Origin: Patescibacteria group bacterium
Lineage (GTDB): Bacteria > Patescibacteriota > Microgenomatia > UBA10105 > UBA927
Assembly: GCA_049322955.1 (NCBI GenBank)
Contig: JBMOPU010000012.1
Location: 543,199-607,198 of the forward strand
DNA: 64,000 bases
Reading direction: 5' to 3'
The position numbers were made by a program, and so were the translations under genes. Positions 17,745-55,826 of the stretch are shown in pieces; within the stretch, counting starts at the first letter, position 1; every line of letters begins with the position of its first letter. The notes below the pieces were generated by a model, which searched no databases, was not told the origin of the DNA, and saw nothing but the letters and a program-made list of their open reading frames with translations.

Positions 17745-18989
17745 TTACTGTGTAACCCACTTTTCCAGCGCCCGTTGAAGCTCGGGGCTGTCTTTGGTTT
17801 CTGAAAGGGGAGTGCCCGTAAGTGTTGCCTTCAATGATTGGACGATCGCCCGTGCTCCTGCGGGAGTGCCGTCGGGGTGCCCGTGAATGCCGCCGCCGAA
17901 GTTCATGAGTAAATCCTTGCCGAGGATGGATACAAGATCGGGGATGTGTCCGGGGTGCAGTCCGCCCGATGCGGTGGGGAGGGTAGTTTTCAAGCCATAC
18001 CATTCACTTCTTAGGAAGTTATTGATCGTCACCACTTCTTCTTTCCCGCCTTCCATTTTGCCGACGACCGTTCCGGTGTGGAACGAGTCGATACCCGCAA
18101 GGCGCGCCAGTTTGGCGATGACGAGCATCGAGATACCGAATATTTTGGATCGGGTAAATGCCGCGTGCATGGCGCGGTGCCCATGGATCATCAGTCCGTA
18201 GTTCCTATTCCGAATTCCCTGGGTCGCGGCAAAGCCCGCAGTCAGGACATCGATCATCAGACAGTTAGCGCCACTGTCGCGCACGTAGTTGGCGCGTTTC
18301 ATCATTTCTTCGTAACTTGCCGTGATGTTAAACGCATGGATTTTTGCCTTGCCGATTTCAAGGTAATTCTTTTCTTTCATCCTGCGGGTCACTTCATCCA
18401 CCCGGGTATAGAAATTATCAAACGTCATGTTGGCGAGGTTTTCGTCATCTTTGACGAGGTTGACCCCTCCATCCCACACCTCCATACACGCTTCGGCGTG
18501 GCGGACGCTGGTGAGTCCCAGCTTGGGCTTGATGATCGAGCCGGTGAGCGGGCCATCGTGTACTCCCGTGAGGTTGCGGATTCCTTCGATGCCCAATGCA
18601 GGACCGGGGAACGATTTGACGAATATCTCGGGAAATTCCAAATCTTCAAGCCGGAGCCCCACGATTTCTTTAAGCCCGAAGACGTTTCCCGTGATAGAAG
18701 AGAGGAGTTGGGGGATACTTCCCGCCTCGAATAAATCGAGTGGATACGCGACGACAATTCTTCCCGTCTTTTCATCCATTTCGATGACTTTGGCATGCAA
18801 TTTGTCCCAGATTTCCTTTTCTTCAAGCCCGATGTCCGTCCACGTGCCGACGGAGGATTCCGCCGCCACTCCACCTGCCGTTTTATCAAACGGTTCGCCT
18901 TCCACTTTGAGGGTAAAGGTAGCCAAAATATGCTTGGTCTTGTCGACTTTTTCGTTGAGTGCCAGATAATGGATGTACCGATTTGCCAT
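17745..18989 (-). CDS. rbcL: Ribulose-1,5-bisphosphate carboxylase/oxygenase large subunit, form III-like (archaeal/CPR type)
   Basis: Active-site motifs IKPKLGLTS, GGVNLVKDDEN (carbamylated Lys), HRAMHAAFTR, GLHPGHIP ... NFGGGIHGHPDG; 414 aa. Immediately downstream of an e2b2-family isomerase. Confidence 0.88.
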   Translation of the reverse strand: MANRYIHYLALNEKVDKTKHILATFTLKVEGEPFDKTAGGVAAESSVGTWTDIGLEEKEIWDKLHAKVIEMDEKTGRIVVAYPLDLFEAGSIPQLLSSITGNVFGLKEIVGLRLEDLEFPEIFVKSFPGPALGIEGIRNLTGVHDGPLTGSIIKPKLGLTSVRHAEACMEVWDGGVNLVKDDENLANMTFDNFYTRVDEVTRRMKEKNYLEIGKAKIHAFNITASYEEMMKRANYVRDSGANCLMIDVLTAGFAATQGIRNRNYGLMIHGHRAMHAAFTRSKIFGISMLVIAKLARLAGIDSFHTGTVVGKMEGGKEEVVTINNFLRSEWYGLKTTLPTASGGLHPGHIPDLVSILGKDLLMNFGGGIHGHPDGTPAGARAIVQSLKATLTGTPLSETKDSPELQRALEKWVTQ

Positions 18990-18996
18990 AGAAATA

Positions 18997-19911
18997 TTAT
19001 AGAGAGATAAACGGATAATTCATACGGGCGGTTTCGACAATTTGTTCCCCGCGAAGCAATCCCGCTTCGGTAATGATCGTGATGTCTTTATCATACGGTG
19101 TAAAGTCAAAGGCGGGGGCAAAGATCGAAAGCTTTTCGGGCGCATCGTTCCATATTTCCGACGGATTGCGGGTTTCGATAAGCGACTGGTCAAACGGGCG
19201 AGGATCATATTTTAACAACGTGGAGAAGCAATACACGGGAATATTTCGCGCCCGTGCCGCAAGTACGATGGCAAGACTGCCGATTTTGTTGACAAACCCC
19301 GTGTCGGTCAGTAAATCCGCCCCGATAAATACCGCCGAAATATTCCGCTTCGGATCGGCAAGCACCGAGGCGGCGGCGCTATCGACGATCAGTGTCACGG
19401 GATCGATACCCCCGTTTATGAGTTCCCGCACCGTGAGTCTTCCTTGAAACAGAGGGCGCGTTTCGGTGGCGATAACCGAAAGCTTCTTTCCGTTGTGGTG
19501 TGCCTGCAAAAAAGCGTTGGTGACGGTGGATGCATGGCAATGGGTCAGGTATGTTGCGCCATCTTGCATGAGGGCGGCACCATGGGCGGCAATTTTATGT
19601 TTTGCGTCACGGATAAAGGTAGTGTAGGTCGCGATTTTTCCGAGTACTGCCGCGGCGGTTTTGGGAGCATCGGCAAACATACTCCGCACCGCATTTTGAG
19701 CCAACGGCTCGGTGGGACGCGCGTATGCCAGCGCTTCTGCCATCTCTTTCAGCTTCGTTACGGGTGTTTCGGGGGCATTGCGTACCGTGAGGGTAAGGGT
19801 ATCAAGCACGGCAAGTGCGACATTAGTCGCTCCCTGAATGTTTAAGGCTTTGATATCCGAAACCACCTGTTCATGGGACAGCATATGTCCATTGTAGAAA
19901 GAACGGTTCAC
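18997..19911 (-). CDS. Ribose-1,5-bisphosphate isomerase (eIF-2B alpha/beta/delta-like, e2b2 family)
   Basis: IF-2B family fold (GATNVALAVLD, THCHAST with candidate catalytic Cys, GADLLTDTG with Asp). Ends 8 nt upstream of rbcL. Start is GTG at 19911 or in-frame ATG at 19884. Confidence 0.75.
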   Translation of the reverse strand: MNRSFYNGHMLSHEQVVSDIKALNIQGATNVALAVLDTLTLTVRNAPETPVTKLKEMAEALAYARPTEPLAQNAVRSMFADAPKTAAAVLGKIATYTTFIRDAKHKIAAHGAALMQDGATYLTHCHASTVTNAFLQAHHNGKKLSVIATETRPLFQGRLTVRELINGGIDPVTLIVDSAAASVLADPKRNISAVFIGADLLTDTGFVNKIGSLAIVLAARARNIPVYCFSTLLKYDPRPFDQSLIETRNPSEIWNDAPEKLSIFAPAFDFTPYDKDITIITEAGLLRGEQIVETARMNYPFISL

Positions 19912-26161: not shown

Positions 26162-26671
26162 TTAAATTAACTCGCGGAGTTTAGCGCGTGCCTTACTTAT
26201 TCTTGTTCTGACGGTAACTGAGTTGGTGTTTGTTTTTTCAGCAATTTCTTCATTCGAGTAGCCTTCCATAAGAAGGAGCATAACTTCCTGTTGCTCGATA
26301 TTTAACATACTTATTGCTTTGAGGATTGCCGCTTTATGTTCTCGATGGATTGTTTCCCGTTCTGGTGAAACGCTCTCATGCAGTCCGAATCTGGATTCAT
26401 CTTCGATAGTGACATGTCTTCTCCCAAACATTTTTTTGCGTCTGGACAAATCAATAAGTTTGTTTCGAGCTGTTCGATCCGTATATCCGAATAATGCATC
26501 TTCTCCGTTAGCCTCAATTTGTTTTTCAAGAGCTGTGAGAATTGCTGATTGAGTGGTATCCTCTGCATCTTCATCGTTCAAACCGCGTCGCCTTTGACGG
26601 GTGAAAGTCCGATCGAGAACTCTTTGAAACAGAGACTCCCTTTCTGTGGATTTTGTTTTGTTCTCACTCAT
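26162..26671 (-). CDS. RNA polymerase sigma factor, ECF (sigma-70 group 4) family
   Basis: Region 2 (DAEDTTQSAILTALEK) and region 4 HTH (EQQEVMLLLMEGYSNEEIAEKTNTNSVTVRTRISKARAKLRE). Start set at MSENKTKS. The gene is markedly AT-richer than its neighbours. Confidence 0.8.
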   Translation of the reverse strand: MSENKTKSTERESLFQRVLDRTFTRQRRRGLNDEDAEDTTQSAILTALEKQIEANGEDALFGYTDRTARNKLIDLSRRKKMFGRRHVTIEDESRFGLHESVSPERETIHREHKAAILKAISMLNIEQQEVMLLLMEGYSNEEIAEKTNTNSVTVRTRISKARAKLRELI

Positions 26672-26681
26672 GGGGCAGTAT

Positions 26682-27377
26682 TTATTGGATGGCAAGCATT
26701 GCCTCGGTTATCTTTGTCATTTTTCCTTCGATAATATCTTCAAGATTATGCCAGCTTTTATTAATGCGGTGATCGGTAACCCGATTTTGGGGGAAATTAT
26801 AGGTGCGGATTTTTTCACTCCGCATCCCGCGTCCGATGATGGAGCGTTGTTCGCTCATTGACTGTTCTCTGGCCAAAAGCTCCCGTTCCCACAATCGTGC
26901 ACGCAACATAGACATGGCTACCTGCCTGTTTTGGTACTGGTCGCGTTCATTTTGGCACTGTACGACGATCCCGGTGGGTTTATGTCGCAGGCGTACCGCC
27001 GAACTTACTTTGTTCACATTCTGTCCGCCTTTGCCCCCTGCCCGGTAAAATTCCCATTCCACATCCTCAGGTTTGATATACACTTCGTTCTCGGGAATTT
27101 CAGGTAATACCGCAACCGTCGCGGTGGAGGTGTGAATTCTGCCGTGCCGTTCGGTGGAGGGGATCCGCTGGACACGGTGGGTACCCGCCTCATACTGCAG
27201 TTTGGTAAAAGCCGCGGTACCGCGGATACGCACGGCAAAATCATCGAGCTGTTCGGTTTTCCAGCCGACGATTGCCGCATAGCGGACGTACATACGGAGT
27301 AAATCAGCGGCCCACAGTTTCGCTTCTTCGCCGCCCGGACCTGCACGAAACTCCATGATTGCAATATCGGTGTTCAT
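26682..27377 (-). CDS. prfA: Class I peptide chain release factor, RF1-like, lacking N-terminal domain 1
   Basis: Codon-recognition domain with a PxT-type tripeptide ([19 protein letters not shown]1-like, not the SPF of RF2). GGQ motif ([14 protein letters not shown]). Domain 4 present. Only 231 aa, and an in-frame stop lies 8 codons upstream of the ATG. Confidence 0.8.
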
Positions 27378-27459
27378 ATTATGATTAATCGGGAATCGTT
27401 ACCGGAATACACTGAAAAAAGCACACAAACAAATAACGTAACGCGTGTTTTGCGTAATC

Positions 27460-27759
27460 CTATTTCAATCCCATCAACATTTCTTTGAGGGACTTCGGTG
27501 CCACAGCAGAGGATTGCTGTTGCTTCTTTTTCTTTTTTGAGACATACGTACTTGCGGCGGCTTTCTGCTGTTTGTTCTGGAATCGCTCGACACGACCCAT
27601 CGTATCGACAAAGCGCATCTCGCCGGTAAAGAACGGATGGCATTTGCCGCAGATTTCCACCTGGATTTTGTCCTTGGTCGCTCCCACGGTAAAGGTATTG
27701 CCGCAGGCACAGGAAACAACGGCTGAGGGATACCATTTCGGATGAATGTCGGATTTCAT
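27460..27759 (-). CDS. rpmE: 50S ribosomal protein L31
   Basis: [10 protein letters not shown] ... CACGNTF ... [10 protein letters not shown] ... RVERF is the bL31 signature, including the zinc-binding Cys pairs. Confidence 0.9.
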
Positions 27760-27807: not shown

Positions 27808-28233
27808 TTAGGGGTTGTCAGGGTCAAATTCGTCATACTTTGCCAGTTTGGCTTGGAGCCGCAGGGATTCCAGTCTCGAGATGGGCTTTCTGCGGCCGTA
27901 AATGGGGTTATTGACGTTGGGATTGTCGTCCTTATCCCGCCATTCCATGTAGTAATCCATGACGTGTTTGCCCTTAACCCGTTGCAGGGCCACAATCGGC
28001 ACCAGTCGGTACTCCGACGTTATATCAATGCCTCCTGATCTTTCGATAGCCTGCTTCCGCCGTAGGGTTAACTCCATCTCCATAAAATCGGGCGTAAGTT
28101 CGGGAAAAAGCCGGTCCGCTTCCGCTAGCTTACGGAGGTTATATACGCCTAAAATACTTGCGGCGACATCTGGGCGTTCCGACCGGGGTGAGGTAAAGCG
28201 TTTTCGCAGTCCGTCAATGAATCCTTCTCCCAT
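27808..28233 (-). CDS. Hypothetical protein
   Basis: Complete 141-aa ORF in a gene-sized gap; no recognisable motif. Confidence 0.3.
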   Translation of the reverse strand: MGEGFIDGLRKRFTSPRSERPDVAASILGVYNLRKLAEADRLFPELTPDFMEMELTLRRKQAIERSGGIDITSEYRLVPIVALQRVKGKHVMDYYMEWRDKDDNPNVNNPIYGRRKPISRLESLRLQAKLAKYDEFDPDNP

Positions 28234-52518: not shown

Positions 52519-53256
52519 CTACTGGATCTCGTAGCTGAGGCTCACGTTGACCGAAAGCTCCGAGGTGCCCGGTTCCACTTCTGTGGGGGCTCCTCCGCCG
52601 GACATCGGCAGAGCTTTTTCTGCGGTATCATACATCAACGGCCTTGGGTATGAACCGTTTCCTTCACTGTAATTGATGACTCTCCCGAGTTTAAAGCCGG
52701 CGGCACGGGCCGCGGCTTCCGCTTTTGCCTTTGCATCACTAACCGCCGCTTCTCGCGCCTGATTTTCCGCCTTTGTTTTATCATCGACGTCAAAACTCAC
52801 CCCTCCCACCTCGTTTGCTCCCTCGCGGGTCGCGCCGTCGATCACACTGTTTATTGAATCGATTTTTCTCACCTTCACCGAAAGCTGGGAGCTTGCCTGA
52901 TAGCCGGTAACCCGTTGGGTACCTGATGAATAATCATAAGTCGGCGAGATATGATAATAACTCGTTTTTATATCTTTGGCATCCACGCCGAGTTTTTTGA
53001 TTGCCGCACTTACGGCGTTCATCTTGGTATTTAACTCATCCTGCACTTTGGTGACTGACGAACCTTGTGCGGTGACGCCGAGCGATACGACGGCAACATC
53101 GGGAATGAGCGTTACTTTTCCCTCACCGCTGACGGTAAAGGTATCTGTTTTTGTCGTCGTTACGCTGTTAATCGAAAAAGGCAACGGTCCCGCGAGTTTC
53201 GTATAGGCAAACAGCATAATAAAGAAGAGTACGATTGCACCTGAAATATCTTTCAT
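52519..53256 (-). CDS. SIMPL-domain (DUF541, BP26/OMP28-like) protein, membrane-anchored
   Basis: Start at the ATG preceded by AAAGGAGGGAAT; it overlaps the folD stop (ATATGA). N-terminal TM helix, SIMPL-like beta-alpha core, Gly-rich segment SGGGAPTEVEPG. Confidence 0.6.
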   Translation of the reverse strand: MKDISGAIVLFFIMLFAYTKLAGPLPFSINSVTTTKTDTFTVSGEGKVTLIPDVAVVSLGVTAQGSSVTKVQDELNTKMNAVSAAIKKLGVDAKDIKTSYYHISPTYDYSSGTQRVTGYQASSQLSVKVRKIDSINSVIDGATREGANEVGGVSFDVDDKTKAENQAREAAVSDAKAKAEAAARAAGFKLGRVINYSEGNGSYPRPLMYDTAEKALPMSGGGAPTEVEPGTSELSVNVSLSYEIQ

Positions 53257-54122
53257 ATATTCCCTCCTTTTTGTATAGTACATGCTTTGACAAGATTTTT
53301 CATGAGACAGGCGACATTAATAGGACCCACACCTCCCGGCGTCGGGGTATAGTATGACGCGACATCGGCTATCGCCGCTTCGTCGTAATCACCGTTAAGC
53401 TTTCCTTCACTATCCCGCCATATGCCGACGCTGATAAGCGTCGCTCCTTGTCGGATCGCGGACGGGACGATGACATCCCGTTTTCCGACGCAGGAAATAA
53501 TGATATCGGAAGCGGCGGTGACGGCGGAAGGATTCGGAGTTTGTGAATGGATTATAGACGTCGCACAATTATGCTTTGCGAAATAACGGGAGATAGGTGC
53601 TCCCGCAGTCTCCCCCCTGCCGATAATGGCTATTTTTTGGGAGCGTAGCCATTGCCACAACGAATCTTCGGTATGAGGTGCACTCGCACCCTCCTGCGGA
53701 AGAGACCGCAGTATCTCCCCTATCGCAAGCGCGACGGGTACTTCAAACGGACTATCGGAAAGAAATCCGTCAACATCTTTTTCTTTACGGATTTTTTGTA
53801 AGACGTCGGCAACCCCTCCCACTTCCTCAGGGATCGGTCGTTGCACGATAAGGCCGTGGATCAAGTGATCCTTATTAAACCGATTGATCAGATTGTAGAG
53901 TCCGCCTGAAGTGAGTGACGGCGGTTGGTGTTCGAGAACGAGTCGTGCCCCTATTCGTTCTGCGGCTTTTTGTTTCTGCTTGATGTAGGCGAGACTTGCC
54001 GGATTGTCTCCGATCAAGATGACCGCAAGGGTAGGATCGATCCCCTGTTCCTTCAGTGACGCGACATCATCCGAAAGTCGTGTTAAGAGGGATTCAGCGA
54101 TAAATTTTCCGTCGATACGCAT
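53253..54122 (-). CDS. folD: Bifunctional 5,10-methylene-tetrahydrofolate dehydrogenase / methenyl-THF cyclohydrolase
   Basis: MRIDGKFIAESL start aligns with canonical FolD N-termini. Conserved YIKQKQKAAERIG, PEEV ... KDVDG, Rossmann GRGETAGAPI. Confidence 0.9.
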   Translation of the reverse strand: MRIDGKFIAESLLTRLSDDVASLKEQGIDPTLAVILIGDNPASLAYIKQKQKAAERIGARLVLEHQPPSLTSGGLYNLINRFNKDHLIHGLIVQRPIPEEVGGVADVLQKIRKEKDVDGFLSDSPFEVPVALAIGEILRSLPQEGASAPHTEDSLWQWLRSQKIAIIGRGETAGAPISRYFAKHNCATSIIHSQTPNPSAVTAASDIIISCVGKRDVIVPSAIRQGATLISVGIWRDSEGKLNGDYDEAAIADVASYYTPTPGGVGPINVACLMKNLVKACTIQKGGNI

Positions 54123-55082: not shown

Positions 55083-55826
55083 ATGGAAAACAAATCAACC
55101 AGTGTCGCGATTATTGTCAGTTCCCTACTTTTTGTCACGCTTATCGGTATCGGTGGTATGTTCCTTCCTTCATGGGGCAAATTTGAGCTTACGCCGACAA
55201 AGACCGTGACGGTTGTCGGCGAAGCGAAATCTCAGGAAAAAAGTCAGATTGCGATATTTTCCGCGGGGGTAAATGCCTTTAACGATGACAAGAATACGGC
55301 AGTCAATGAGGTGAATAAAAAAGTCGAAGCGATCATTACCGCCGTCAAAGAATTCGGAGTCCCCGCTTCCGACATCAAGACACAGAGCCTCAACATCTAT
55401 CAGAACCAGGAACAATATTATGATGCCGACGGGCGTCAGCGGTATCGAGCGGGACAGTGGAATGTAAGCAACACCGTGGAAATAAAACTCAAGGATGTGG
55501 ATCGTGCGGGTACGCTTGCGGGGGTGTTGACCAAGACCGGTGCCAATAACGTGTACGGACCGAACTTTACCTTCGATGATACCAGCGAACAGGCAACGGC
55601 GCTTCTCGATGCCGCATACAAGAATGCGGAAGCCAAAGCGATGAAGGTCGCCCAGAGTACGGGGAAGAAGCTTGGTAGTGTGGTCAGTGTTTCTGAGGCA
55701 GGTGCCGCGTCGCAAGTGATGCCGCTGTATCGCATGGAAGGCGGCGGTGGCGGCGGCGGTGGGGCCGTCGAACCGGGAAGCGGTACGGTAAGTAAAAGCG
55801 TGATCGTCACTTTCGAACTTAAATAA
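55083..55826 (+). CDS. SIMPL-domain (DUF541) protein, second paralogue, with C-terminal poly-Gly tract
   Basis: Same architecture as 52519..53256 (TM anchor plus SIMPL core). Gly8 run (MEGGGGGGGGAVEPGSG) encoded by a GGC/GGT repeat at 55741-55768. Confidence 0.6.
   Translation: MENKSTSVAIIVSSLLFVTLIGIGGMFLPSWGKFELTPTKTVTVVGEAKSQEKSQIAIFSAGVNAFNDDKNTAVNEVNKKVEAIITAVKEFGVPASDIKTQSLNIYQNQEQYYDADGRQRYRAGQWNVSNTVEIKLKDVDRAGTLAGVLTKTGANNVYGPNFTFDDTSEQATALLDAAYKNAEAKAMKVAQSTGKKLGSVVSVSEAGAASQVMPLYRMEGGGGGGGGAVEPGSGTVSKSVIVTFELK

Follow-up and report, generated by a model that had tools for sequence, protein, structure and literature searches.

The window, by which we mean the whole 64-kb stretch of DNA analysed here, carries a gene for a 231-residue class I release factor that is probably the ordinary RF1 (prfA) of the organism, with domain 1 (~105 residues) wholly lost by evolutionary reduction. 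The protein descends from RF1 yet departs from the formal definition of the family in two respects, because it has no domain 1 and its scores lie below the equivalog cut-offs. To our knowledge, virtually every RF1 or RF2 described so far has a domain 1.

Architecture of the gene and its surroundings

The prfA ORF lies on the minus strand, starts with ATG and ends with TAA. Its parts and the adjoining features are as follows, with positions counted along the window.

26682..27377, minus strand: prfA, 231-aa release factor 1 with domains 2, 3 and 4 and without domain 1 (Pfam, NCBIfam, PDB, Foldseek)
27348..27377, minus strand: 10-residue N-terminal stub ahead of RxGxGGxEA, the opening motif of domain 2
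27240..27245, minus strand: D45/D46, junction left by the loss, throughout the clade, of 10 residues from the tip of the beta2-beta3 hairpin in domain 2 (alignments)
27153..27161, minus strand: PST, RF1-type PxT codon-recognition tripeptide, residues 73-75, lying inside a 10-residue segment
27021..27029, minus strand: GGQ peptidyl-tRNA hydrolysis motif, G117-G118-Q119
27378..27459, minus strand: spacer between rpmE and prfA, 82 nt
27399..27401, minus strand (minus-strand reading): in-frame TAA, the 8th codon upstream of the prfA ATG
27460..27759, minus strand: rpmE, ribosomal protein L31, 99 aa, the conserved upstream neighbour (Pfam Ribosomal_L31, E 5.7e-27)
26162..26671, minus strand: gene for an ECF-type sigma factor, directly downstream of prfA (Pfam Sigma70_r4_2 and Sigma70_ECF)

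The N-terminal helical domain 1, the element of ~105 residues that contacts RF3, is absent from the window protein. Since domain 1 corresponds to ~105 codons, the 82-nt spacer is too short to hold it. The preliminary description of this gene had already reported the in-frame stop 8 codons upstream of the ATG, the 82-nt distance from rpmE and the consequent lack of sequence space for domain 1, and all three are confirmed by the coordinates given above. Its identification of the PxT tripeptide (PST), the GGQ motif and domains 2-4 likewise stands, as the motif codons were located and both the prfA models and the RF1 structures match. It had placed the start at the equivalent of about residue 116 of E. 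coli RF1, a value that the alignments correct to ~106, and the 10-residue deletion in domain 2 was not among the features it listed.

The downstream sigma gene is on the same strand and begins ~10 nt past prfA. Its product has 169 aa with the start chosen by the gene callers and 177 aa from a TTG at 26695, the latter start giving a 14-nt overlap with prfA. The association with prfA is not fixed, because the sigma gene is missing at that position in most of the genomes that carry the related P0007 protein. No Rfam match was found between 25500 and 29500 in a search for a regulatory RNA in the spacer, and scans for promoters and terminators at the locus gave background levels only.

In the L31 protein encoded upstream, the Pfam domain covers residues 1-63 of the 99, and a lysine-rich C-terminal tail of ~35 residues follows. 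The length of L31 varies from 72 to 108 aa in the related loci and is unrelated to the length of RF1.

Identity as release factor 1

The Pfam PCRF match comprises only profile positions 102-194 of 194, and the RF-1 (GGQ) domain is complete (E 1.1e-39). The NCBIfam prfA models are matched in a similar way, only at positions 106-339 of 347 (NF001859) and 114-347 of 361 (TIGR00019). Both bit scores lie below the equivalog cut-off (321.4 vs 400 for NF001859 and 314.2 vs 423.25 for TIGR00019). This shortfall is as expected, because a third of each model is missing from the protein.

In the PDB, the protein matches RF1 structures from end to end. Residues 85-319 of T. maritima RF1 are aligned with E = 4e-76, and residues 111-344 of E. 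coli RF1 with E ~3e-64; from these alignments, the window protein starts at about residue 106 of the E. coli factor. The alignments also show that the domain 2/4 superdomain is present with its RF1-type decoding elements, namely GxGGxEA at the start of helix alpha5, the Gln of HRVQR and the His-Thr of RIHTS. The top Foldseek matches are ribosome-bound RF1 (TM 0.68), which confirms the RF1 fold; the AlphaFold model used in this search is of moderate quality only, with a mean pLDDT of 69 and values below 50 in the C-terminal 55 residues.

Three other members of the release factor superfamily were considered and rejected. The tripeptide of RF2 is SPF, not PST, and the prfB model gives 218 bits, compared with 321 for prfA. 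For PrfH, the score is 75.9 bits (TIGR03072, cut-off 166.65), the PxT tripeptide is normal, rpmE occupies the upstream position, and the 20-kb neighbourhoods contain no RtcB. The ArfB model gives 55 bits (cut-off 100) and aligns with residues 97-132 of the window protein only, and the protein has a full domain 2/4.

Conservation of the form without domain 1

Independent assemblies from Logan, ENA and NCBI contain an identical 231-aa protein in 37 blocks, where the neighbourhood is always HisRS, EamA, a small ORF, L31, RF and sigma. In a search of 5.8 billion proteins, the best 120 clusters (90% identity) have lengths of 224-256 aa, with 232 aa in 63 of the 120, and are 78-88% identical to the window protein. 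The names among them are Patescibacteria, Woesebacteria or Gottesmanbacteria 'PCRF domain-containing protein', and several sit on contigs >1 Mb. Exactly 10 residues stand ahead of RxGxGGxEA in 110 of the best 120, and the commonest starts are MNTDIA, MNPDVA and MNSDIA. The GGQ motif is present in all 120, as is the PxT tripeptide (PTT in 74, PST in 31, PAT in 9, PVT in 3, PET in 2 and PQT in 1). When 53 sequences were aligned, 98 columns were invariant, among them those of the GGQ motif and of the first and third residues of PxT.

When GTDB species genomes were scanned, 22 loci were recovered, one of which (CAYUZE010000005.1) is a 100% match. Nineteen of the 22 loci were parsed, and in all of these species representatives the domain-2 motif is preceded by an in-frame stop at a distance of 11-27 codons. 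The end of rpmE is usually 15-108 nt upstream of RF1 in the GTDB loci. The 'binchicken' or co-assembly MAGs of GTDB are titled 'uncultured Gammaproteobacteria bacterium'; their gene content and nearest named relatives point to Gottesmanbacteria and other Patescibacteria, and the titles look like placeholders.

The dN values relative to the window gene are 0.07-0.33, with saturated synonymous sites. The dN/dS ratio is at most 0.04 where it could be computed and is an upper bound only, because synonymous sites are saturated for most pairs. The RF1 without domain 1 is under strong purifying selection in Patescibacteria of Gottesmanbacteria and Woesebacteria type. The proposal in the preliminary description that this is a natural class I release factor lacking domain 1 is upheld by the identity across assemblies, the best 120 clusters, the 19 species genomes and the signature of selection; the truncation is also kept in the sister genomes, as seen from the equivalent upstream stop in the 19 GTDB species representatives.

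These data bear directly on whether the short gene arose from faulty assembly or annotation, or is a 5'-truncated pseudogene in decay. The source is a metagenome-assembled genome, and the RF ORF is split in one of the 22 related genomes. In that species representative (L037:8796-9493), RF1 is divided into two overlapping ORFs, which is either a frameshift error of the MAG or a genuine pseudogene. However, the identical copies in 37 assembly blocks, the conserved length, start and stop, and the low dN/dS exclude an assembly error or a pseudogene for the window gene. The same architecture in the best 120 clusters, including those on contigs >1 Mb, the 98 invariant columns in 53 sequences and a spacer that cannot hold domain 1 also count against an artefact, whose probability we regard as negligible.

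Search for domain 1 and for other release factors

An HMM of domain 1 (112 positions) was built from 54 full-length RF1s. As a positive control, it detected the half domain of a 303-aa RF1, P0123, with E 9e-8. When applied to the six-frame ORFs of the 64-kb window and 597 kb of related loci, it found nothing better than E 0.06. This result argues against a split gene, in which domain 1 would still be produced on its own by a different ORF. A nominal candidate for such a polypeptide is the 141-aa ORF at 27808..28233 on the minus strand, which has no Pfam match and lies between EamA and rpmE, just upstream of the latter. However, this ORF has an internal frame-breaking deletion in three strain variants (L006, L008 and L009) where RF1 is identical, and an opposite-strand ORF of 112 aa takes its place in the sister species that carries P0007. 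We consider a split gene exceedingly unlikely. The search also answers the question, raised in the preliminary description, of whether domain 1 is encoded as a separate adjacent ORF, as neither the window nor the 597 kb contains a match.

A phmmer search for RF paralogues among the six-frame ORFs of the window and 38 loci (597 kb) returned only RF1 itself, and no RF or RF3-like gene was found within ~10 kb beyond each window end. These stretches, in which neither RF2 nor RF3 nor a second RF1 turned up, make up only a small share of a genome of ~1.2 Mb. The preliminary description had suggested a specialised paralogue such as a rescue factor, that is, a second RF1 with a rescue or regulatory role beside a full-length RF1 elsewhere in the genome. 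The known relatives without domain 1, PrfH and ArfB, are indeed rescue factors (PDB matches 9mor and 7sa4). For the window gene, the suggestion is not sustained. The gene occupies the conserved rpmE-prfA slot, its RF1 decoding residues are intact, and the prfH and ArfB models give 76 and 55 bits against cut-offs of 167 and 100, compared with 321 bits for prfA. There is no RtcB-like partner gene nearby, and the paralogue search recovered no second factor in the window or the 597 kb. Identity to the nearest full-length RF1s is only 50-54%, and the sole named relative among them is from Dojkabacteria. Among the best 120 relatives of the nearest full-length RF1, none has the same longest-contig value as any of the megabase contigs on which the truncated gene lies, although this is a weak test. 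On this evidence, a specialised paralogue is unlikely.

The stop codons of 74 ORFs in the window are TAA in 43, TGA in 22 (30%) and TAG in 9. Because TGA ends 30% of the ORFs, RF2 must be encoded outside the window. TAG, the sole codon that needs RF1, is the rarest stop (9 of 74), and this rarity may relax the demands on RF1. A changed specificity or role of the short factor, either omnipotent (reading UGA as well, with no need for RF2) or mainly regulatory, would fit the lack of an RF2 gene in ~84 kb around the locus despite the share of TGA, as well as the trimmed hairpin in domain 2. However, the PxT, HRVQR and RIHTS elements are of RF1 type and conserved, and the lack of prfB is expected because ~84 kb is only ~7% of a genome of roughly 1.2 Mb. 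We consider a changed specificity very unlikely and retain an ordinary RF1 reduced to domains 2-4.

Stepwise reduction across Microgenomates

Comparison of RF1 sequences gave three classes, which are listed below by the median length, the position of the first GG of GxGGxEA and the spacing from this GG to GxHRV.

Full length: median 358 aa; first GG at ~118; GG-to-GxHRV 60; ordinary bacteria and the P0243 family (one named Dojkabacteria)
Half domain 1: median 298 aa; first GG at ~75; GG-to-GxHRV 50; at least 119 clusters, including Microgenomates GW2011_GWA2_44_7 and Levybacteria
No domain 1: median 232 aa; first GG at 14; GG-to-GxHRV 50; the window clade (Gottesmanbacteria, Woesebacteria)

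The half-domain-1 form occurs on contigs of up to 818 kb. Its N-termini (~45-60 residues) match positions 54-100 only of the domain-1 HMM. Among the clusters in the matches listed, GG and GxHRV are 50 apart in all 118 from the window clade and in 105 of 114 with half domain 1, and 60 apart in 113 of 118 full-length RF1s. The half and null forms are tied together by the 10-residue hairpin deletion, which is common to both. A 256-aa form from Amesbacteria (KKU58406.1) stands between the half-domain and null classes.

In a rough neighbour-joining tree, P0123 (303 aa) is sister to the null clade. It shares the hairpin deletion and the position after rpmE with the window protein, to which it is 60% identical, and the half-domain-1 RF1s are 57-69% identical to P0123. 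The difference is that the half-domain-1 form keeps ~45-60 residues of domain 1, whereas the window protein has none. The gene order HisRS-EamA-L31-RF is also common to the P0123 locus and the window. From the sequence comparison, the Microgenomates series appears to run from a factor of ~358 aa, through loss of half of domain 1 together with the hairpin trim (~298 aa), to loss of the whole domain (256 aa, then 231-232 aa); the order of these events rests on the rough tree.

Two other shortened factors of Patescibacteria, P0136 (242 aa) and P0132 (269 aa), keep the full hairpin and occupy other branches of the tree, suggesting that they were truncated independently. The RF1 variants of 303, 269, 242, 232 and 231 aa are all encoded directly after rpmE. 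The gap between rpmE and RF1 is -4 to 42 nt for P0123, P0132 and P0136, and the P0127 call overlaps rpmE by 17 nt.

Short RF1-like sequences outside the clade (for example P0150, P0137, P0141 and P0217) look like fragments or products of mis-called starts and were not counted. Two RF1 cluster representatives with no relation to the window, P0122 and P0125 (477 and 481 aa), have ~115-130 residues spanning PxT to GGQ duplicated internally in tandem and are probably assembly artefacts.

Comparison with known release factors

The window protein has domains 2-4, the PxT tripeptide, the GGQ motif and adjacency to rpmE in common with the canonical RF1s of E. coli, T. thermophilus and T. maritima, and over domains 2-4 it is 51-54% identical to full-length RF1s. 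It differs from the canonical factor in lacking domain 1, 10 residues of the hairpin and 1 residue in the linker between domains 3 and 4.

ArfB, ICT1 and C12orf65 resemble the window protein in having a GGQ domain and no domain 1. However, they lack the codon-reading domain 2/4, which the window protein has, and carry a C-terminal tail instead. PrfH (RF-H), the rescue factor linked to RtcB2, is a class I release factor homologue that is naturally without domain 1 and has a GGQ motif (PMC1586002). PrfH has altered decoding residues and an obligatory RtcB-like gene upstream, whereas the window protein has a normal PxT and no RtcB neighbour.

A parallel in architecture is a set of engineered E. 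coli RF1 and RF2 variants from which domain 1 was deleted (Mora et al. 2003, as summarised in PMC1586002), and which consist of the same domains 2-4. According to that summary, the constructs were made in the laboratory and were associated with slow growth, whereas the window gene is natural, fixed and conserved, and has the hairpin trimmed in addition.

No description of an N-terminally reduced RF1 in Patescibacteria was found in the full-text literature, a body of text that leaves most subscription journals outside its coverage. The database entries of relatives bear generic names (for example EKD87560.1 and KKU58406.1), with 'PCRF domain-containing protein' as the NCBI name. Because these proteins fall below the equivalog thresholds and carry generic names, annotations of these genomes can give the impression that prfA is absent.

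Other genes in and around the window

At 17745-19911 on the minus strand of the window, a homologue of the RuBisCO large subunit (414 aa) adjoins an IF-2B-family protein (~295-304 aa), as judged by Pfam and the syntenic loci. Such a pairing is typical of the nucleoside-salvage pathway described in Patescibacteria. In two other assemblies from this species (L002:16095-17753 and L005:16095-17753), the genes after YchF are that of a serine recombinase of 552 aa (Resolvase/Recombinase/Zn_ribbon_recom) and small ORFs of no relation. The post-YchF position of the window holds small ORFs, IF-2B and RuBisCO, and the difference represents a strain-level insertion or rearrangement.

Two SIMPL/DUF541 paralogues, at 52519-53283 (minus strand) and 55083-55826 (plus strand), flank FolD and an EamA transporter. 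Past the right end of the window, L046:1-9108 contains a type IV pilus-like set of two T2SSE ATPases, T2SSF, an N_methyl pilin and an A24 prepilin peptidase, which adjoins the genes for the DNA polymerase III delta' subunit and gyrB.

Proposed mechanism and significance

In canonical RF1, domain 1 lies next to the L11 stalk. It is the least conserved domain of the release factors and forms the contact for RF3 (PMC1586002). In the account that PMC1586002 gives of Mora et al. 2003, E. coli RF1 without domain 1 was still capable of codon-specific release in vitro and kept its function in vivo, and it did not stimulate nucleotide exchange on RF3. As far as that account goes, these deletions make function without domain 1 plausible.

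Judging from its sequence features, the window protein most likely serves as a housekeeping terminator at UAA and UAG without coupling to RF3. The factor would bind the ribosomal A site at these two codons, and its GGQ loop would trigger hydrolysis of peptidyl-tRNA as in any RF1. Without domain 1, it would not be recycled by RF3. Because the domain that contacts RF3 is missing, the factor would have to leave the ribosome spontaneously or during recycling by RRF and EF-G. Termination at UGA, the stop of ~30% of the ORFs, would fall to a separate RF2 with its gene beyond the window.

It is possible, and we put this forward tentatively, that Microgenomates dismantled RF3-dependent termination in steps, losing first half and then all of RF1 domain 1. 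The translation apparatus of Patescibacteria is already known to be reduced, with uL1, bL9 and uL30 missing in the account of PMC9297842 that we draw on, and translation termination now joins these reductions. An RF1 that lacks domain 1 throughout a lineage, together with its half-domain sisters, constitutes a natural experiment on the role of this domain in RF3 coupling, docking at the L11 stalk and off-rate. If prfC is also absent, and perhaps RF2 is shortened too, these organisms would have the minimal natural bacterial termination machinery, with class I factors of domains 2-4 only that would exit the ribosome without the help of a class II factor.
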